From Escherichia coli (GTDB taxonomy: Bacteria; Pseudomonadota; Gammaproteobacteria; Enterobacterales; Enterobacteriaceae), in the NCBI RefSeq assembly GCF_050920415.1, contig NZ_CP169309.1: DNA of 64,000 nt; one strand, given 5' to 3'. A program made the position numbers and the translations under genes. Below, piece by piece: positions 13,224 through 55,676 of the stretch; positions within the stretch are counted from its first letter, which is position 1; the number at the start of each line of letters is the position of its first letter. The notes under the pieces are model-generated. The model did not search any database, was not told the DNA's origin, and saw only the letters and a list, made by a program, of their open reading frames with translations.

Positions 13224-14867
13224 TTAACGAATGTTAATCAGCGCATCAAAAATCGCGTTTGCCGTCTGCAGAACCTGTGCATTCGCCAGATAATACTGCT
13301 GAAAACGTTGCAGATTTCCGTACTCCTCATCGAGATTGACACCGGAAATCGACTGCTGCTGATTGGAAAGCTGCGTTACCACATTACCTTGCGTGGTGCT
13401 ACTGGTTTTCAACGTCGCGGTTTTATTACCGATATCACTCACTAACGATGCATAAGCGTCGTTAAAGGATTTCGCACCGCCCACCGTTTTACTGTTGCTT
13501 TGCAGATCCAGCAGGGCCTGACCGTTGCGGTTGTCGCTATCACCCGCATCTTCTTCGCTCGCCATGGCGATTTTCGCTTCGTCAGTGATTAATACATCCA
13601 TGTTGACGATGGCGTCACTTACCGGTTTCAGCGTGAAGCTGTCGTTAACGGCAGGCGTTCCTGTAAACGTCAACTCCAGACCATCAAATGCCACTTTACC
13701 GTTGGCATCCGGCGTCACCGTAAAAGTGGTATTGCTGGCAAGGCGGGTGACCTGCCACTGATTATTATCGAACGAGATTTTGTAATCTGTCGCCAGTACC
13801 GCGGAGGCATCAGTTACCGTGGCACCGATCGCAACGTCACCGTTGTTTTTAGTGTTTTGCAGAACCGCGGGCTTACCGATAGCAAAGAAATCTTCACCGG
13901 CATCGCCGTTAGCATCAAATCCGGCTTTGTGTTGGGTGTTGAAAGCCTCGGCAAATGCCAGCGCCAGTTGTCCGAGCGTATTACGCGTCTGGTCCAGATC
14001 CTGAGAACGGAATGTCAGAATGCCGCCCAGTGACCCGGTATTCAGCAATTTCTCCGGGATCTCAAGATTGCCCGCAGTCCCATCAACATAAGCGACAGTC
14101 GTACGAGAAGGGTCGGCGCTGGAAGGAACTGCCGCTAGCTGCCGCGCCGTACTACCCTGAACCAGTGAGTAACCATTGGCCATCGTGATGTTATAAGTGC
14201 CGCCATCCTGAACGCTGACTTCTACACCAACAATCTGGTTTAATTCGCTCACCAGTTGATCGCGTTGATCCAACAGATTGTTAGGTGACGCCCCTGCTCC
14301 CACGCCTGTCAGACGGGAGATTTGATCGTTCAGGCTGGCGATTTGTTTAGCGTAATTGTTGATCTGATCAACGCTGGCACCTATCGCGATATTGACCTGT
14401 TTGTCCTGGTCGCGCAGATATTGATCGGTGGTTTTAAACTGATTCACCAACCCTTCTGATTTCCCAATCAGCGCCTGGCGTGCTGCCGGGTCTTCCGCGT
14501 TACTTACCAGCGTTTGCAGGCTTGTGAAGAAATCCTGCATCTGTGTTGCCAGCGAAGAGGTACTGGTGGAGAGCATATTGTCGATTTTCGACATCTGCTC
14601 ATAGCGGGCAGTCAGGCCGCTACTTTGCGTCTGCGCAGCACGTAACTGGTTGGTAATAAACGCATCATACTCACGCTGCACACCAGAAACGTAGACGCCA
14701 TTGCCAACCCAGCCGCCAGCGCCCAACGTGCTATTGGCCTGCGCCATAATAGTGGTTTGGCGGGTATATCCGGCAACGTTATAGCTGGAGATATTATTAC
14801 TTGCCGTATTTAACGCCGCCTGGGCCGCGTTCAGTCCGCTCATGGCGTTATTGATCAAGCTGGACAT
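13224..14867 (-). CDS. flgK: Flagellar hook-associated protein 1
   Basis: 547-aa ORF; conserved N-terminal flagellar rod/hook motif. Confidence 0.95.
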   Translation of the reverse strand: MSSLINNAMSGLNAAQAALNTASNNISSYNVAGYTRQTTIMAQANSTLGAGGWVGNGVYVSGVQREYDAFITNQLRAAQTQSSGLTARYEQMSKIDNMLSTSTSSLATQMQDFFTSLQTLVSNAEDPAARQALIGKSEGLVNQFKTTDQYLRDQDKQVNIAIGASVDQINNYAKQIASLNDQISRLTGVGAGASPNNLLDQRDQLVSELNQIVGVEVSVQDGGTYNITMANGYSLVQGSTARQLAAVPSSADPSRTTVAYVDGTAGNLEIPEKLLNTGSLGGILTFRSQDLDQTRNTLGQLALAFAEAFNTQHKAGFDANGDAGEDFFAIGKPAVLQNTKNNGDVAIGATVTDASAVLATDYKISFDNNQWQVTRLASNTTFTVTPDANGKVAFDGLELTFTGTPAVNDSFTLKPVSDAIVNMDVLITDEAKIAMASEEDAGDSDNRNGQALLDLQSNSKTVGGAKSFNDAYASLVSDIGNKTATLKTSSTTQGNVVTQLSNQQQSISGVNLDEEYGNLQRFQQYYLANAQVLQTANAIFDALINIR

Positions 14868-14900
14868 GGAGGTTCCTTATAAGCCTTCAATTACAGAGTA

Positions 14901-14931
14901 TTATCGGCAGCGACCCGCCGGACTTGAGTTA
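14901..14931 (-). promoter_or_regulatory. Probable sigma-28 (FliA) class 3 promoter for flgKL
   Basis: Minus-strand GCCGATAA -10 element (ttatcggc at 14901-14908 on + strand) with a partial TAAA-like -35 upstream; lies in the flgJ 3' end / flgK upstream region. Confidence 0.45.
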
Positions 14932-14932
14932 T

Positions 14933-15874
14933 TCAGAACAGATTATCAATGTTCATGCTGTAGGTTTTGCTCACCTTGTCGCTTATCGATTTCATCTGCT
15001 GAATCATGCTGGTGAGTTTGCGGGCATAGTGAGGATCGGTGGCATAGCCCGCGTCCTGTAGGGCCTGCGCCCCCTGCTCAGCACTCGCGGCGGTCGTCAC
15101 GGCGGCGTAGCGCGGGTTACGCGTTAACAGCCCAACGTAATCCGACAATGCTTCCAGATACGAGCTGTAGACCCGAAACTTCGCTTTTACTTTCTTCGCT
15201 TCGCCATTTTCATATTCAGTCGTGGTGATTTCAGTGACTGGCCCTTTCCAGTTGCCAGAGGCTTTGACGCCAAACAGGTTATAGCTCGGCTCGCCGTTTT
15301 CACGGCGGATTTGCCGTTGTCCCCAGCCAGATTCCAGCGCCGCCTGAGCGAGGATCAAATGATGTGGCACACCGCTTTGCTGGCTTGCCAGTTGGGCGGG
15401 CAACGAGAGTTGCGCGAGGAATGCTTTACTGTCACCCGGCAGCGAATCATCGTAGTTACGTGGTACGGCCTTTTGCACCAGCTGCGAAAGCGTCTGATTT
15501 TGATAACGCACCACGGTTTCGAGCGGGAATTTCATCGGTGCTGCTGGCGTGGACTCATCTGGCAACGGTTGTTCTGGCGTCATCTGTTTAACAATCATCT
15601 CTGCCAGCCCCAGGCCTTTGCCCGCCGTCATCTGTTGGGCAATCTGCTGGTCATACATACTGGTGTAGAGGCGAGTGTGCTCGCTGCTGAACAGGCCATC
15701 TTTTGGCAAAGCGTCGCGCATGCTTTTCAGCATCATCTGCACGAACATCCCTTCCACCTGGCGGGCCACCGGACGGATATTTGCCGCCGGATCTTCGCCC
15801 GCTTTCGCCTTAAGTTCGTTGAGCGATTGTGCATCCCAGGCCGCACTTGCCAGTAGTTTGCTGTCGCTGATCAT
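14933..15874 (-). CDS. flgJ: Flagellar rod assembly protein / peptidoglycan hydrolase FlgJ
   Basis: ORF 14933..15904; start chosen at MISDSK (313 aa); ATGA overlap with flgI stop. Confidence 0.93.
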   Translation of the reverse strand: MISDSKLLASAAWDAQSLNELKAKAGEDPAANIRPVARQVEGMFVQMMLKSMRDALPKDGLFSSEHTRLYTSMYDQQIAQQMTAGKGLGLAEMIVKQMTPEQPLPDESTPAAPMKFPLETVVRYQNQTLSQLVQKAVPRNYDDSLPGDSKAFLAQLSLPAQLASQQSGVPHHLILAQAALESGWGQRQIRRENGEPSYNLFGVKASGNWKGPVTEITTTEYENGEAKKVKAKFRVYSSYLEALSDYVGLLTRNPRYAAVTTAASAEQGAQALQDAGYATDPHYARKLTSMIQQMKSISDKVSKTYSMNIDNLF

Positions 15875-16974
15875 CAGATGATTTCCAGTTTTGCCCGCAG
15901 ACATCCCGCACTTTGCATTGATTGCAAAATAGACATCAGATCCATCGGCGTAGCACCCAGCGCATTGAGCGCGCGCACCACGTTATTGAGGCTGGCACTG
16001 GAGCGTACGCTTTGCAGCGAACCGCCGCTCTGGCGTAAGTCGATCTGTGTTTGTGGAGTAACCACAGTCTGCCCGCCACCAAACGGTGTATCTGGCTGGC
16101 TGACATTGGCCTGCCGATTTACCGTAACCGAGAGATTACCCTGCGCTACCGCGCAGCTGTCGAGGGTCACTTCGCGATTCATCACCACCGAACCAGTGCG
16201 CGAGTTAATCACTACTTTAGCGTCCTGCGGGGTAACATTAACCTGCATATTCTGGATATCGGCAAGGAAACGGACCTGGGAACTGTTGCCACTCGGTACG
16301 CGCACCTGAATAGTCCGCGCATCTAACGCGGTGGCGCTGCCATATCCACGCACGCGGTTGATGGTGTCAGCGATTTGCTGCGCCATACTGAAATCTTCGT
16401 CGTTAAGTTGCAAATTAAGGGTATTCCCGACGCCAAACTGGCTGGGCAATTCACGTTCAATAACCGCACCATTGGTGATCCGTCCACCGTTCAGTTGGTT
16501 CACCTGAACACTGCTACCGCCAGCGGAGGCCCCTGCGCCGCCAACCAGAATATTGCCCTGTGCCAGCGCATACACCTGACTGTCAACGCCCTTAAGCGGT
16601 GTCATCAATAACGTACCGCCACGCAGACTTTTGGCATTTCCCATGGAAGAAACCACCACGTCAATGGTTTGCCCCTGACGTCCAAACGGTGGAAGTGACG
16701 CCGTCACCATTACCGCAGCGACGTTTTTTAGCTGCATATTAGTGCCCGTCGGAACGGTAATTCCCAGCTGTGAGAGCATGTTATTAAGCGTTTGTGTGGT
16801 AAACGGCGTCTGAGTTGTCTGGTCACCGGTGCCATCCAGCCCCACCACCAGGCCATAGCCAATCAGTGAGTTTTGCCTTACCCCCTGAACACTGGTGAGA
16901 TCGCGAATACGCTCAGCCTGAGCTGCCGTGATAACCAGTAGAAGAATTAATGCAGAGAGAAATTTAATCACCAC
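15874..16974 (-). CDS. flgI: Flagellar P-ring protein
   Basis: 366-aa ORF with signal peptide ([11 protein letters not shown]); the true start may be the second codon. Confidence 0.95.
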
Positions 16975-16982
16975 AGCCTCAC

Positions 16983-17681
16983 TTACATTGGCGACAGGTT
17001 AAGGAAGAAACGCTGCAACCAGCCCATATTTTGCGCTTCGTTAATGTAGCCATTGCCTACGTATTCAATGCGCGCATCCGCCACCTGAGTAGACGGTACG
17101 GTATTACTGCCGCTGATGGTGCGAGGATTAACTACACCAGAGAAGCGAATAAATTCGGTACCCTGATTAATGGCGATCTGTTTTTCACCCACCACATGCA
17201 GGTTGCCGTTGACCAGTACCTGGTCAACCGTCACCGTCAACGTGCCGCTAAAGGTATTGCTGGCATTGGCCCCGCCTTTTCCGTTGAACGTGTTACCACC
17301 GGAGGCTTCGACATCGGCACGAGCGTTTCCAAACAGCCCCTGCAAATAGCGCGGCACAGTATCAAAGCCAAAATTAGTTTTACCGTCACGGCTGGCATTC
17401 GCAGAGGAGCTTTTGCTGGCGCTGACGTTCTCCTGCAACACGATGGTCAGCGTATCGCCAATATTGCGTGGTCGACGATCTTCAAACAGCGGTTGATAGC
17501 CATAGTTAATCGGCTGAGCAGACTGGAAAATAGAACCGTTGGCGACGGGCGTCGGACCGGGAACCGGTTGTGCACTGGTCGCCCCCTGTACCAGCGGCGT
17601 GGAGGGTATCCAGGCGCAGCCGGTTAGTGAAAGCACCAACAAGCTGGAAATGGCATAAGTATGCGCAGCGTTTTTTTGCAT
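16983..17681 (-). CDS. flgH: Flagellar L-ring lipoprotein
   Basis: ORF 16983..17696; start chosen at [10 protein letters not shown] (232 aa); lipobox LTGC. Confidence 0.93.
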
Positions 17682-17733
17682 GGCTATCATCTTCAAAAAT
17701 CAGTAAACCGGTGAATCTGCCACCGGTTATGCC

Positions 17734-18534
<801 letters not shown>

Positions 18535-18561
18535 TTATTGACAAAATGCATATGTCTTCAT

Positions 18562-18595
<34 letters not shown>

Positions 18596-18686
18596 AAGGG
18601 ATAGAAAAATCAATAAATTGCGATGTACCCCGTAGACCGATAAGTTTGCACACTGGGCAACTTACATTTGTCATGTATCCGTTCAA

Positions 18687-19442
18687 TTAACTCATCGACA
18701 GCAGTTGGTTGGCACGGCCTGCGTTATCATCAACGCTGCTGATCACCTTCATCTGCATTTCAAAACGCCGCGCGCTGGCAATCATGTCGCTCATTGCCGC
18801 AACGGCATTGACGTTACTGCCTTCCAGAACCCCCGACATCACACGTAAGGTTGGATCTGCCTGCAGTACCGGCCCACGCGTAGCCTGGCTTTCTGCGCTT
18901 AAACGAAACATGCCGTCGTCACCGCGCTGCACTTCGCTGCCCGTGGCTTTCACCAGCTTCAGACGCCCCACTGGCGCGACAGTATTTGCCGGATCGCCAG
19001 AATTCAGCGCCGAGATTGTGCCATCGGCAGCAACAGTGATTTCCGCCCCTTCCGGCACAGCAATTGGCCCCGCCTCGCCGATCACCGGATGCCCCTGAAT
19101 TGTCAGTTGCCCGGTGGGATCAACCTGAATGCTGCCATTACGCGTATATCCTTCGCTGCCGTCAGCGGTCTGCACGGCCAGCCAGCCGTCCTGCTGCAAC
19201 GCGACGTCCAGCGGGCGCGAGGTGTAATCCATCTTACCGGGCGTCATGTCAGCACCCGGTGTTGACGCCGTAACCAGCGTGCGCGTGGGTAGTGAAAGCC
19301 CTTCCACCGGCACTGCACGCAAGGCGTTTAACTGTGCGCGAAAACCGGGCGTAGAGGCATTGGCCAGATTACTGGCGGTCACCGCCTGTTGATTCAGCGT
19401 CTGGCTGGCTGCCCCCATCGCGGTATAAATTGCGTGATCCAT
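18687..19442 (-). CDS. flgF: Flagellar proximal rod protein
   Basis: 251-aa ORF recognised as FlgF. Confidence 0.95.
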   Translation of the reverse strand: MDHAIYTAMGAASQTLNQQAVTASNLANASTPGFRAQLNALRAVPVEGLSLPTRTLVTASTPGADMTPGKMDYTSRPLDVALQQDGWLAVQTADGSEGYTRNGSIQVDPTGQLTIQGHPVIGEAGPIAVPEGAEITVAADGTISALNSGDPANTVAPVGRLKLVKATGSEVQRGDDGMFRLSAESQATRGPVLQADPTLRVMSGVLEGSNVNAVAAMSDMIASARRFEMQMKVISSVDDNAGRANQLLSMS

Positions 19443-19461
19443 TGAGCTATCCCGTCAGCGA

Positions 19462-20667
19462 TTAGCGTAAGTTAACCAGCGTGTTGAGGATCTGGTCCTG
19501 AGTTTTGATGGTCTGGGCGTTAGACTGATAGTTACGCTGGGCAACGATCATATTGACCAGTTCTTTGCTGAGATCGACGTTGGACGCTTCCAGCGCACCG
19601 TTGGTCAGGGTGCCAAAGTTGCCCGTCCCGGCAGTCCCCAACAGCGCCACGCCAGAAGATTGCGTCGCAGACCAGACATTGTCACCTTCAGATGCCAAAC
19701 CTTCGTTGTTGGCAAAGTTCGCCAGTACAATCTGCCCCAGCAGTTGGGTTTGTTCGTTGGAATAGTTGCCGACAACCGTACCGTCATCATTGATTTGATA
19801 ACTCACCAGATCGCCCGGTTTATAGCCGTTCTGGGTGGTTGCCACAATGTTGTTAGCACCGGTATTTTGCTGCATGGAGTTGAGGAAGCTCAGGCTAAAC
19901 GTGGCGGGATCTGCGCCGTTAATTGCGCCGGTGGTAATATCCTTTGTTGGATCTGAGGTCAGAACGCCATTGGCATTAAACAACAGCGTCGTTGCAGGGT
20001 TAGCTGTGCCTTTTGGATCACTGCTATCCAGGGTGTAAACATCCCAGTTATTATCCCCGGTCTTCACAAAATAAACGCTCATATCATGAGCATTACCCTG
20101 ACTATCGAAAACAGTCACCGAACCTTTTTTGTTATAGCTATCCGCATTGCTGGCATCGAATCCTTTAACAGAGGGAAGCGGATCACTGGAATTCAGGTTG
20201 ATCTGCATCGACGCCGTGGTGGTAGTTTTCGCTGCCATCAGGGTATTCGGGATCGAAATATTGGTCGGATTCGCCCCTTGTTGAATAGTCGGCGGCGTAC
20301 CGGTTGCCGGGTAACCCGTCAGCTGTAAACCTTGCATATTCACCAGGTTACGGTTTTCATCCAGCTTAAATTGTCCGTTACGGCTGTAGAACACCGAACC
20401 GTTGCTGTCTACCAGACGGAAAAAACCGTTCTGGCTGATAGCAACGTCCAGACCACGCCCGGTGTTGGTGGTCGTGCCATCGGTAAAGTCCTGAGTGATA
20501 CCGGCAACTTTTACCCCCAGTCCCACTTTCGAACCGGCAAACATATCGGCAAAAGAGGCCGTGCCTGATTTAAAGCCGTAGGTGGCGGAGTTGGCGATAT
20601 TGTTGCCAATAACATCGAGGTTGGTGGCGGCAGCGTTTAATCCGCTAACCGCTTGAGAAAAGGCCAT
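19462..20667 (-). CDS. flgE: Flagellar hook protein
   Basis: 401-aa ORF recognised as FlgE. Confidence 0.95.
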   Translation of the reverse strand: MAFSQAVSGLNAAATNLDVIGNNIANSATYGFKSGTASFADMFAGSKVGLGVKVAGITQDFTDGTTTNTGRGLDVAISQNGFFRLVDSNGSVFYSRNGQFKLDENRNLVNMQGLQLTGYPATGTPPTIQQGANPTNISIPNTLMAAKTTTTASMQINLNSSDPLPSVKGFDASNADSYNKKGSVTVFDSQGNAHDMSVYFVKTGDNNWDVYTLDSSDPKGTANPATTLLFNANGVLTSDPTKDITTGAINGADPATFSLSFLNSMQQNTGANNIVATTQNGYKPGDLVSYQINDDGTVVGNYSNEQTQLLGQIVLANFANNEGLASEGDNVWSATQSSGVALLGTAGTGNFGTLTNGALEASNVDLSKELVNMIVAQRNYQSNAQTIKTQDQILNTLVNLR

Positions 20668-20692
20668 GACTGACTCCTGAAATTTGAGGGCT

Positions 20693-21388
20693 TTAAATTA
20701 TCTGCCGTACTTCGTCGAGGGTGGTGGTGCCGTAAGTGCCGAGATCCAGCGTATTACCGTTGTTGCCGCGGATCACCCCCTGCACCAGAGCAAACTGCAG
20801 CGGCTGGGCAACCAGTTGTGTACCACCGCTACTGGCGCTAATCGCTACATTGTAAGAACCGTTCGGCGCAGTGCTGCCGTCAGTCAACGTACCGTCCCAG
20901 GTGAAACTGTGGACTCCGGCAGTCAGTTCACCGATATCAATGGTACGGACAACCGCGCCGTTTTTATCGGTGATGGTGGCCGTAACTTTGTCTGCCGCCT
21001 GCTGCAACTCAACACCAAACGGTGTGGTCGTGGTCACAGCCCCTTCTTCACTGCCGGTTCCGGCAAGAACTGTGGTGCCGGGGATCATCACACCGTGACC
21101 GATCAGGTTACTGGCCTGTAACGACTGGCTGTTATCAATCTGTCCGGAAATAGATCCGAGCGTGGTATTGAGTTTTTCAATCCCGCTGACCGTGCTGATT
21201 TGCGCCAATTGCGACGTCAGCTCGTTGTTTTCCATTGGATTGGTCGGGTCCTGGTTTTTCAGCTGCGCCACCAGCAAAGTCAGAAAACTGCTTTGTAAAT
21301 CTGCGGCGTTGCTACCCGTGAGCGAGCTACTGCTGGTGGTGCTAACGCCGGTATTTGTCGGATCGGTGGTGGTTACCGCAATGGACAT
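20693..21388 (-). CDS. flgD: Flagellar hook capping / assembly protein
   Basis: 231-aa ORF recognised as FlgD. Confidence 0.94.
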   Translation of the reverse strand: MSIAVTTTDPTNTGVSTTSSSSLTGSNAADLQSSFLTLLVAQLKNQDPTNPMENNELTSQLAQISTVSGIEKLNTTLGSISGQIDNSQSLQASNLIGHGVMIPGTTVLAGTGSEEGAVTTTTPFGVELQQAADKVTATITDKNGAVVRTIDIGELTAGVHSFTWDGTLTDGSTAPNGSYNVAISASSGGTQLVAQPLQFALVQGVIRGNNGNTLDLGTYGTTTLDEVRQII

Positions 21389-21399
21389 AGCTTTCTCCT

Positions 21400-21804
21400 T
21401 TATTGACCGAGCGTAAGGGTTTTCAGCATCATGCTTTTCACCGTGTTGAGCACTTCAACATTGGCCTGATAGCTGCGTGACGCCGACATGGTGTTAACCA
21501 TCTCCCCGACAACATCAACGTTTGGCATTTTCACGTAGCCCTTTGCATCCGCCAGCGGATTACCCGGTTCATAAACCAGTTTGTCCGGAGCCTGACTTTC
21601 TATAACATCGGCAACCTTTACGCCGCCTGTCGCAGCACCTGGCGCAGCGTTAACCTGAAATACCACCTGTTTTGCCCGATATGGCTGTCCATCGGGACCG
21701 GTCACGCTATCAGCATTCGCCAGATTACTGGCCGCCACGTTCAGGCGCTGGGACTGGGCAGTTAACGCCGACCCGGCGATATCAAAAATATTCAGCAGTG
21801 CCAT
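21400..21804 (-). CDS. flgC: Flagellar basal-body rod protein
   Basis: 134-aa ORF recognised as FlgC. Confidence 0.95.
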
Positions 21805-21807
21805 CCG

Positions 21808-22224
21808 TTAATTTCCGCTCTGTAAAACGTTCATCATGCCTTTGATTTGCCCGCTCAACGCGCTAAGGCTCATCTGGTATTGCAGGCTATTATCGGCAAA
21901 CTGGGTGCGTTCGCGATCCATATCGACGGTATTACCATCCAGCGAAGGCTGGTCCGGAATACGGTATTGCAGTTCTGCGGTAGGAGGCGTCAGCGCCTGC
22001 GCCGGAATGTGTTGCGTTGAGGTCATCGTCAGCGCAACCATGCTGGTTTCATCCCGTCCACGCTGCATGACCTTTTTAAGTTCACTGGCAAAATCGATAT
22101 CGCGTGCCTGATAACCAGGGGTATCGGCATTGGCGATGTTTGCTGCCAGCACTTCCTGACGCTGGGCGCGCAGATTGAGCGCCTCTTGTTGAAAACGTAA
22201 GGCGGCGTCGAGCTTATCGAGCAT
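21808..22224 (-). CDS. flgB: Flagellar basal-body rod protein
   Basis: 138-aa ORF recognised as FlgB; first gene of the flgB operon. Confidence 0.95.
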
Positions 22225-22378
22225 ATCTCCTCCGCAAGTATCAAAATTCTGCCATCAGCTTAAATGCCTTTACGCGCGCGTTATCGGCGGAATAAACGCA
22301 AAATGGGTCGCTATTTATGCCGTTGATGGTCATTGCGTACAGGTACAATTCACGTTGTAGAAATGGCTGGGAGCGAAA
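22225..22378. promoter_or_regulatory. Divergent flgB / flgA class 2 flagellar promoter region (FlhD4C2-dependent)
   Basis: 154-bp interval between divergently transcribed flgB and flgA; FlhDC control of both is established knowledge; individual boxes not resolved here. Confidence 0.55.
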
Positions 22379-23038
22379 ATGCTGACAATAAAACGTAGCG
22401 TGGCGATCATTGCGATACTGTTCAGTCCGTTAAGTGCGGCGAGCAATCTCACATCGCAGTTACAAACCTTTTTTAGCGCCCAGCTCGCGGGAGTAAGTGA
22501 TGAGGTTCGTGTTTCTATTCGTACATCGCCCCATCTACTTCCGCCGTGCGAGCAACCACTGCTTTCGATAAGCAATAATTCCCGCCTGTGGGGAAATGTG
22601 AATGTGCTGGCACGCTGCGGTAACGACAAACGATATTTGCAAGTCAATGTACAGGCCACAGGAAATTATGTGGTTGCCGCGATGCCCATTGTGCGGGGAG
22701 GAAAGCTGGAAGCTGGCAATGTAAAACTGAAACGCGGACGACTGGACACCTTGCCGCCGCGTACTGTGTTGGATATCAATCAACTTATTGATGCCGTTAG
22801 CCTGCGCGATCTATCACCCGAACAACCTATCCAATTAACCCAGTTGCGCCAGGCCTGGCGTGTAAAAGCGGGACAACGCGTCAACGTGATCGCCAGTGGT
22901 GATGGGTTTAGCGCCAACGCTGAAGGTCAGGCGCTGAACAATGCTGCCGTCGCACAGAATGCGCGGGTGCGCATGGTATCGGGACAGGTGGTCAGCGGCG
23001 TTGTTGATGCAGATGGGAATATTCTTATAAACCTGTAA
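22379..23038 (+). CDS. flgA: Flagellar P-ring assembly chaperone
   Basis: 219-aa ORF with signal peptide, recognised as FlgA. Confidence 0.94.
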   Translation: MLTIKRSVAIIAILFSPLSAASNLTSQLQTFFSAQLAGVSDEVRVSIRTSPHLLPPCEQPLLSISNNSRLWGNVNVLARCGNDKRYLQVNVQATGNYVVAAMPIVRGGKLEAGNVKLKRGRLDTLPPRTVLDINQLIDAVSLRDLSPEQPIQLTQLRQAWRVKAGQRVNVIASGDGFSANAEGQALNNAAVAQNARVRMVSGQVVSGVVDADGNILINL

Positions 23039-23043
23039 GCTAT

Positions 23044-23070
23044 TAAAGATTACCCGTCCCTTGCCGATAA
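23044..23070 (+). promoter_or_regulatory. Sigma-28 (FliA) class 3 promoter for flgMN
   Basis: TAAAGATT (23044-23051) - 11 nt - GCCGATAA (23063-23070), a near-perfect sigma-28 consensus just after the flgA stop and 44 nt upstream of the flgM ATG. Confidence 0.8.
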
Positions 23071-23113
23071 ATAAGCAACACATGATAAAAGCGCCCTCAA
23101 TGAGGAATAAACC

Positions 23114-23407
23114 ATGAGTATTGACCGCACTTCACCTCTGAAGCCCGTAAGCACCGTTCAACCGCGTGAAACCACTGACGCGCCGGTAACGAATACCCGG
23201 GCGGCAAAAACAACCGCCGCCACCAGCACCAGTGTGACGTTAAGCGACGCGCAAGCAAAACTAATGCAACCCGGCAGCAGTGATATCAATCTTGAACGTG
23301 TCGAAGCGTTAAAACTGGCGATTCGTAACGGTGAACTAAAAATGGACACCGGCAAAATTGCCGATGCGCTAATCAACGAAGCGCAGCAAGACTTGCAGAG
23401 TAACTGA
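23114..23407 (+). CDS. flgM: Anti-sigma-28 factor
   Basis: 97-aa ORF recognised as FlgM. Confidence 0.96.
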
Positions 23408-23411
23408 TCGT

Positions 23412-23828
23412 ATGACGCGTCTTGCAGAGATCCTCGACCAGATGTCCGCAGTGCTTAACGATCTCAAAACGGTAATGGATCAAGAGCAGCAACATCTCTC
23501 AATGGGGCAGATCAACGGCAGCCAGTTGCAATGGATTACAGAACAAAAAAGCTCACTGCTGGCGACGTTGGATTACCTCGAACAGTTACGCAGAAAAGAA
23601 CCCAATGCAGAAAATAGCGTTGATATTAGTCAACGTTGGCAGGAAATTACGGTGCAAACTCAGCAACTACGTCAAATGAATCAACATAATGGCTGGTTAC
23701 TGGAAGGACAGATTGAGCGCAATCAACAGGCGCTGGAAATGTTAAAACCGCATCAGGAACCGACGCTGTACGGGGCGAACGGTCAGACATCAATACCCCA
23801 TCGCGGCAGTAAAAAGATTTCGATCTGA
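23412..23828 (+). CDS. flgN: Flagellar export chaperone for FlgK/FlgL
   Basis: 138-aa ORF recognised as FlgN. Confidence 0.95.
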   Translation: MTRLAEILDQMSAVLNDLKTVMDQEQQHLSMGQINGSQLQWITEQKSSLLATLDYLEQLRRKEPNAENSVDISQRWQEITVQTQQLRQMNQHNGWLLEGQIERNQQALEMLKPHQEPTLYGANGQTSIPHRGSKKISI

Positions 23829-23837
23829 AGATTATCT

Positions 23838-23858
23838 CCGGCCTGCAGTGCAGGCCGG
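23838..23858. terminator. Bidirectional terminator between convergent flgN and murJ
   Basis: Perfect palindrome ccggcctgca-g-tgcaggccgg between the two stop codons. Confidence 0.7.
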
Positions 23859-23867
23859 AATGCATTG

Positions 23868-25490
<1,623 letters not shown>

Positions 25491-30583: not shown

Positions 30584-30593
30584 TTATCCTTTG

Positions 30594-30623
30594 TGTCCGG
30601 CAAAAACATCCCTTCAGCCGGAG
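30594..30623 (+). promoter_or_regulatory. pyrC leader hairpin sequestering the Shine-Dalgarno (pyrimidine-dependent translational control)
   Basis: tccggc (30596-30601) pairs with gccgga (30617-30622), overlapping the GGAG Shine-Dalgarno upstream of the ATG at 30635. Confidence 0.65.
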
Positions 30624-30634
30624 CATAGAGATTA

Positions 30635-49291: not shown

Positions 49292-50045
49292 GTTGTCACC
49301 CTGGACCTGGTCGTACATTTAAGAAATTAAATCATTTCAACTTGGTTGTTAACGCAACCTGTATTTTGTTAACGCTGCGTTACGATGGAAAGTATGTCTG
49401 CGGAAATATTTTTAATAACTCACCCGCGCGTTGTATTTTTCTTTTTTTGTTCATACCAAAGTATTAAAACCCACGTAAATACGCTGTTATCTACGCAAAA
49501 AAATATTTTGTTTTCTTTTAAATTTCGGTTTTCCGCAATCAAAAATCACCAGACAGTCATTCTTCTTGCCCGTCGCTGATTGCTGCGATATGTCTTGCGC
49601 ACAAGCCGTGACAAACCTCGTCTTTTTGCAGTAAAAAATTGTCCACGGAGGTGTGGAGAAAAAACAAGAACGTTTTACATGACGAAAGGACTACACCGAA
49701 ATATTTTTTATATGCATTATTAGCAAGTTAGCACCATTTGTATGATTTTTTAAAATTGTGCAAGAAAAACCAAATGTACAACTTTTCTATCATTTCTAAA
49801 CTTAATAAAACCTTAAGATTAACATTTTAATATAACGAGTTACATTTAGTTACATGTTTAACACTTGATTTAAGATTTGTAATGGCTAGATTGAAATCAG
49901 ATGTAATCCATTAGTTTTATATTTTACCCATTTAGGGCTGATTTATTACTACACACAGCAGTGCAACATCTGTCAGTACTTCTGGTGCTTCTATTTTAGA
50001 GGCAGCTGTCAGGTGTGCGATCAATAAAAAAAGCGGGGTTTCATC
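49292..50045. promoter_or_regulatory. csgBAC / csgDEFG divergent intergenic control region including the csgD promoter and 5' UTR
   Basis: 754-bp AT-rich interval between divergent csgB and csgD; established binding region for OmpR, CpxR, IHF, H-NS, RstA and MlrA, and the csgD leader is an sRNA target. Confidence 0.75.
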
Positions 50046-55588: not shown

Positions 55589-55676
55589 GGTGAGGTGTCC
55601 GAGTGGCTGAAGGAGCACGCCTGGAAAGTGTGTATACGGCAACGTATCGGGGGTTCGAATCCCCCCCTCACCGCCA
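55589..55676 (+). tRNA. serX: tRNA-Ser (anticodon GGA)
   Basis: 88-nt cloverleaf: acceptor stem GGTGAGG/CCTCACC, long variable arm, T-loop GGTTCGAATCC, anticodon loop CTGGAAA, 3' GCCA. Confidence 0.93.

Follow-up and report, generated by a model that had tools for sequence, protein, structure and literature searches.

FlgM keeps sigma-28 (FliA) inactive until it is exported by the hook-basal body, and the sigma-28 that is then freed increases flgN as well; FlgN is the chaperone of FlgK and FlgL, two proteins made from a second promoter. The genes concerned lie in the overlapping operons flgAMN/flgMN and flgB-L/flgKL of Escherichia coli K-12, where flgAMN read-through is documented (PMC4183435). 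The FliA motif retrieved for flgMN by ChIP-seq in K-12 is TAAAGATTACCCGTCCCTTGCCGATAAA, with a fold-above-threshold of 48 (Fitzgerald 2014, PMC4183435, Table 2), which places flgMN among the stronger of the 52 FliA ChIP-seq sites. Genomic SELEX in vitro with the sigma-28 holoenzyme alone likewise gave a peak in the flgA-flgM spacer, with an intensity of 15.0 (Shimada 2017, PMC5493296).

In Salmonella enterica, flgMN is also dual class 2/3 (PMC8527033), and its class 3 promoter shares with that of E. coli the -35 element TAAAGATT, the 11-nt spacer, the GCCGAT core and the placement just after the flgA stop codon. The two differ in that the last two bases of the Salmonella -10 element are GA (GCCGATGA), the sequence of the spacer is unlike that of E. 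coli, and the leader is about 16 to 17 nt longer, the -10 element being 59 nt from the ATG versus 43 nt in E. coli. The pure class 3 operon tar-tap-cheRBYZ (TAAAGTTT-N11-GCCGATAA) has the two-block sigma-28 architecture in common with flgMN but, unlike flgMN, is no longer expressed at all when fliA is deleted (251 to 0).

The window analyzed here is the whole 64,000-nt stretch of DNA. It belongs to an E. coli chromosome, is 100% identical to strain MFDS1022581 and runs in the orientation opposite to that of the K-12 reference; the region is found in 5,425 of 5,426 complete E. coli genomes. The genes flgA, flgM, flgN, flgK, flgJ and flgB pass their NCBIfam cut-offs, in agreement with the RefSeq annotation, and flgC to flgI and flgL were named by matching the positions of their open reading frames to the K-12 annotation (Table 1). 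Between the stop codon of flgA (TAA, 23036 to 23038) and the ATG of flgM at 23114, which lies 75 nt downstream on the same strand, a terminator scan found no terminator and a sigma-70 promoter scan found nothing relevant.

Table 1. Features of the flg region, with positions counted from the first letter of the window
Feature	Position	Strand	Remarks
FlgO small RNA	12182-12259	-	78 nt; K-12 annotation b4826 and alignment
flgL	12259-13212	-	flgKL operon
flgK	13224-14867	-	operon under the second sigma-28 promoter
flgKL sigma-28 promoter, 28-mer	14900-14927	-	in the 65-nt flgJ-flgK spacer
flgB to flgJ	14933-22224	-	
flgB/flgA divergent class 2 control region, FlhDC-bound	22225-22378		K-12 FlhDC ChIP-seq peak centre maps to ~22313
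flgA	22379-23038	+	TIGR03170; upstream class 2 gene
-35 element TAAAGATT	23044-23051	+	7/8 to TAAAGTTT
11-nt spacer ACCCGTCCCTT	23052-23062	+	between the flgMN -35 and -10 elements
-10 element GCCGATAA	23063-23070	+	8/8 to consensus
Inferred transcription start, A	23078	+	8 nt past the last -10 base
Class 3 flgM leader	23078-23113	+	36 nt; RBS GAGG at 23102-23105, preceded by its complement CCTC at 23095-23098
flgM	23114-23407	+	anti-sigma-28 factor, 97 aa; TIGR03824, E = 9.9e-20; RefSeq annotation
flgN	23412-23828	+	export chaperone for FlgK/FlgL, 138 aa; second gene of the operon; NF012003, E = 4.8e-83
Palindrome TCCGGCCTGCA g TGCAGGCCGGA	23837-23859		perfect, 11-bp arms; read directly; between convergent flgN and murJ
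murJ	23868-25442	-	convergent with flgN

Positions 23044 to 23070 of the plus strand read TAAAGATT-ACCCGTCCCTT-GCCGATAA, which agrees with the sigma-28 consensus TAAAGTTT-N11-GCCGATAA at 15 of 16 positions and has the canonical 11-nt spacer. The original prediction had placed a near-consensus promoter here, immediately after flgA, and both points are borne out by the exact reading, with the -35 element starting 5 nt past the flgA stop. On the same strand, 43 nt separate the end of the -10 element from the flgM ATG. This is the sole match to the consensus with at most one mismatch on either strand of the 64 kb, and none of 100 dinucleotide-preserving shuffles contained any such site. When up to three mismatches are allowed, the window holds three sites, the flgK site among them, versus 0.68 expected. 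With a position weight matrix trained on 23 other FliA ChIP-seq sites, flgMN and flgKL being left out, the flgM site obtains 27.0 bits, a value close to the upper end of the training range and rank 1 of the approximately 128,000 positions of the window. The flgM site has all the sequence-level features that define a sigma-28 promoter.

The window and K-12 MG1655 differ at three bases in a 171-nt stretch that runs from the 3' end of flgA through the spacer into the beginning of flgM. The first is in flgA; the second, A23042 (G in K-12), precedes the -35 element by 2 nt; and the third is a synonymous change in the fourth codon of flgM. The 28-mer, the leader down to the ATG and the position after flgA are all the same as at K-12 flgMp, and the 28-mer is letter for letter the motif of the K-12 flgMN FliA ChIP-seq site, in keeping with the description of the element in the original prediction as known biology and a useful anchor for annotation. 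Mapped through the K-12 alignment, the center of the ChIP-seq motif falls at about 23056 and the center of the peak at about 23081, which is the position expected for polymerase at the start site.

The element is almost certainly the class 3, FliA (sigma-28)-dependent promoter of flgMN, which provides negative feedback and belongs to a dual class 2/3 operon. Motif, uniqueness, identity to K-12 and conservation were computed, while binding, FliA dependence and the start site come from the literature; we infer that these last three also hold in this strain. The K-12 promoter flgMp is already well characterized, and the site adds no new biology. As an annotation anchor, it establishes what the flg region is and which way it runs and, together with the flgK site, marks the two FliA inputs, to flgMN and to flgKL (with FlgO). 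The strain keeps its FlgM feedback promoter intact.

To follow the conservation of the promoter, each species was represented by a single genome, which was scanned for a 12-letter FlgM peptide with a degenerate DNA pattern that is independent of the promoter. This retrieved 120 loci from Escherichia, Salmonella, Citrobacter, Enterobacter, Kosakonia, Pantoea, Erwinia, Edwardsiella, Serratia and other genera, and the promoter was counted in the 106 loci (Enterobacterales) with a recognizable flgM start and sufficient upstream sequence. In every one of these 106 species, the best sigma-28 match within 140 nt upstream of flgM agrees at 12 to 15 of 16 positions and has a spacer of exactly 11 nt. 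Random 140-nt windows drawn from these loci reach a score of 12/16 in only 1.4% of cases. Among the 96 unique sequences, TAAAG is invariant, and so is GCCGAT save that its first C is replaced by A in two of them. The sequence of the spacer is free except at its last base, which is T in 94 of 96, and nearly all sequences have an A 8 nt past the -10 element. The comparison thus yields a clean phylogenetic footprint made up of TAAAG, GCCGAT, the 11-nt spacer and the conserved start-site A, and this sigma-28 footprint could act as a positive control for promoter-finding methods.

The sole mismatch of the flgM site to the consensus, A at position 6 of the -35 element, is the majority state across species (81/96); it is ancestral and no defect of this strain. 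It is conceivable, though rather doubtful, that the A found almost universally here has been selected because it tunes the feedback between FliA and FlgM. Of 5,425 E. coli genomes, 4,813 match the 101-nt stretch around the promoter at 99% identity or more, whereas identity over the surrounding 1.8 kb is only 95 to 99% in most. How far the -10 element lies from the ATG varies by group: 43 nt in E. coli and Escherichia albertii, about 46 nt in the Citrobacter youngae group, about 59 to 63 nt in Salmonella and most Citrobacter and Enterobacter loci, and about 70 to 75 nt in Pantoea, Erwinia and Edwardsiella. The Escherichia leader is without a GC-rich block of approximately 17 to 20 nt that is present in Salmonella, Citrobacter and Enterobacter.

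Transcription from the flgM site probably starts at A23078. The flgM::gfp fusion of Romilly 2020 is described as containing "nucleotides +1 to 105" and ends after codon 23 (PMC7549644); since 105 nt correspond to the leader plus 23 codons, the leader would be 36 nt long. This start agrees with the ChIP-seq peak center and with the conserved A at the same offset in other species. It lies 8 nt after the -10 element and so, at flgM, within the 7 to 10 nt or so that the original prediction had named. The supplements of the SMRT-Cappable-seq study make no mention of flgM.

The following sequence of events is expected at the locus. Sigma-28 RNA polymerase would recognize TAAAGATT (-35) and GCCGATAA (-10) across the 11-nt spacer and would start transcription at about A23078, giving an mRNA that encodes FlgM and FlgN behind the 36-nt leader. 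The two genes would additionally be transcribed by read-through from the FlhDC-dependent flgA promoter. On completion of the hook-basal body, FlgM would be exported and sigma-28 freed, and the freed sigma-28 would then promote more flgM transcription from the flgMN promoter, exerting negative feedback on its own activity. The flgK site would act likewise for flgKL and, via processing of the flgL 3' untranslated region, also for FlgO.

The original prediction held that the flgM and flgK sites delineate the class 3 tier of the flagellar hierarchy in this window. The part of this claim that stands is that the two sites mark the class 3 inputs; neither operon is purely class 3, as both receive read-through, from the FlhDC-dependent promoters of flgA and flgB, respectively. 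A pure class 3 operon has zero class 2 input, and flgMN is not of this kind. It is classed as dual class 2/3 because flgA lies just upstream on the same strand with no intervening terminator and flgAMN read-through is documented. The survival of flgMN expression in a fliA deletion is explained by this class 2 read-through.

How much the class 3 promoter contributes is where the alternatives to this assignment begin. The FliA site might be functional but a near-silent back-up, with flgMN in essence a class 2 operon under the flgA promoter. This would fit the RNA-seq data from motile MG1655, in which flgM went from 451 to 318 in a fliA deletion, a change that was not significant (Fitzgerald, PMC4183435), and was lost about 100-fold in an flhD deletion (PMC4183435); the levels of flgMN and flgKL were barely altered by the deletion of fliA in this one K-12 RNA-seq data set (PMC4183435). 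Against it, microarrays of a fliA deletion showed drops of 6.9-fold for flgM, 4.6-fold for flgN, 5.5-fold for flgK and 4.9-fold for flgL, and all four genes rose about 2-fold upon FliA induction (Zhao 2007, PMC1935009). Moreover, overexpression of FliA in an flhD deletion restored the expression of flgM and flgK, with flgM returning to the wild-type level or above (PMC4183435), and the fact that neither the two elements nor the length of the spacer vary across 106 species argues for selection on function. A near-silent site is therefore unlikely. The share of the class 3 promoter is condition-dependent, as seen in the RNA-seq values (451 versus 318) and the 6.9-fold drop on microarrays, and class 2 read-through dominates under the conditions of the Fitzgerald RNA-seq experiment.

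A different or additional promoter of the sigma-70 type could also provide an independent flgM transcript in place of the sigma-28 site. The only flgM 5' end reported by Kim 2012, at position 1129417 of NC_000913.2 with 14 reads (PMC3415461, supplementary file 2), maps to G23048 inside TAAAG, 66 nt before the ATG, and is not the sigma-28 start; a weak TAAGCT hexamer (23036 to 23041) can be read directly 7 nt upstream of it. The candidate hexamers nevertheless agree at just 3/6 and 3/6 positions, the sigma-70 scan is empty here, and the read count is low, so that this reading is quite improbable, the more so as FliA ChIP-seq, SELEX and FliA dependence all favor the sigma-28 site. The end at 23048 may be a minor sigma-70 start, or it may arise by processing of the flgAMN transcript, and the cells used by Kim 2012 probably contained little active FliA. 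That the flgM motif is a chance occurrence without function has a negligible probability. It is true that GCCGATAA by itself occurs 8 times in the window and that a 17-bit motif within flgD is unbound in vivo, but this explanation was rejected on the absence of comparable sites from all 100 shuffles, the top matrix score of the window, the identity to a strongly bound K-12 ChIP-seq site and the retention of the site in 106/106 species. The class 3 sigma-28 promoter of flgMN is thus the reading retained.

The octamer GCCGATAA alone is not diagnostic, because its 8 copies in the window compare with 2.4 expected. A usable -35 element accompanies the copies at flgM and flgK only. The remaining copies, at 1593, 21890, 22281, 24195, 34969 and 53393, were rejected as promoters, since they have a poor -35 region, score at most 10.7 bits and correspond to no ChIP-seq site. 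The copy at 22281 to 22288 (minus strand), within the FlhDC-bound flgB/flgA control region, matches GCCGATAA exactly and precedes flgB by about 57 nt; its -35 region, CCCATTTT, is not of the TAAAG type, and it scores 10.7 bits. FliA is reported to be unable to rescue the expression of flgB or flgA.

A further motif is found within flgD, in sense orientation, at 20963 to 20990 (minus strand). It reads CAAAGTTA-N11-ACCGATAA and scores 17.3 bits, the second-best value in the window and above that of the flgK promoter. It was considered as a third promoter and is not claimed as one, because its K-12 copy is identical and yet absent from the list of 52 FliA ChIP-seq sites.

The second sigma-28 promoter of the region is that of flgKL. 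On the minus strand it consists of TCAAGTCC (14927 to 14920), an 11-nt spacer and GCCGATAA (14908 to 14901), the latter being the element that the original prediction had located upstream of flgK. The FliA ChIP-seq motif for flgKL in K-12 is TCAAGTCCGGCGGGTCGCTGCCGATAAT, with a fold-above-threshold of 47 (Fitzgerald 2014, PMC4183435), and the 28-mer of the window is identical to it. Sigma-28 SELEX gave a peak of 27.2 in the flgJ-flgK spacer (Shimada 2017, PMC5493296). The flgKL and flgMN promoters have the -10 element and the 11-nt spacer in common, and flgKL is also dual class 2/3; the -35 element of flgKL is weaker, with 5/8 matching positions, and the site scores 16.5 bits (rank 3 in the window) versus 27.0 bits at flgM. 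Among the 14 species whose loci reach flgK, 10 retain TCAAGT-N11-GCCGATA. In both cases the promoter starts exactly 5 nt past the stop codon of the preceding class 2 gene, TAA of flgA on the plus strand (23036 to 23044) and TGA of flgJ on the minus strand (14927 to 14935).

Downstream of flgKL, the small RNA FlgO is processed from the flgL 3' untranslated region (PMC10578931) and depends on sigma-28 through the flgK promoter. The FlgO sequence of the window carries 4 substitutions relative to K-12, one of which converts a G-U pair of the terminator stem to G-C. The Rfam scan of the window did not report FlgO.

The flgM leader contains a complement of the ribosome-binding site (RBS) just ahead of it, in the arrangement CCUC-AAU-GAGG. 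In 75 of 93 unique orthologous upstream sequences, which are related to one another, the RBS can be covered by a Watson-Crick hairpin of 4 bp or more, compared with 17 ± 3.7 in shuffles. The upstream arm varies together with the RBS by family, with CCUC/GAGG in Enterobacteriaceae, CCUG/CAGG in Erwiniaceae and UCCC/GGGA in Chimaeribacter. The helix is tiny, a single-sequence fold of the E. coli flgM leader is no better than shuffled sequence (z = -0.21), and RNAalifold on 43 sequences returned no consensus pairs, because the two types of hairpin fail to align column for column. It is conceivable, though rather doubtful, that a small conserved hairpin formed by CCUC and GAGG covers the flgM RBS; the pattern is suggestive only and is offered as a suggestion rather than a finding. 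If true, the hairpin could be the cis element behind a transcript-specific translational control of FlgM.

Several other features of the window lie outside these promoters. The flgF-flgG spacer (18517 to 18686, minus strand), inside the flgB-J operon, is unusually long at 170 nt and holds the REP-like palindrome GCCGGATAAGGCGTTTACGCCGCATCCGGC; in K-12, a weak sigma-28 holoenzyme SELEX peak of 6.7 falls in this spacer (Shimada 2017, PMC5493296). The perfect palindrome between the convergent flgN and murJ genes has no U tract on either strand and was not flagged by the terminator scan; it likely marks the 3' end of the flgMN operon as a bidirectional 3'-end hairpin. Rfam matches at the gathering threshold comprise the SraB small RNA (6489 to 6657, minus strand), the RNase E 5' UTR element (8518 to 8854, plus strand), the PyrC leader (30585 to 30634, plus strand), the ES056 small RNA (49899 to 49990, plus strand) and a tRNA (55589 to 55673, plus strand), all of which are ordinary features of this E. 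coli region.
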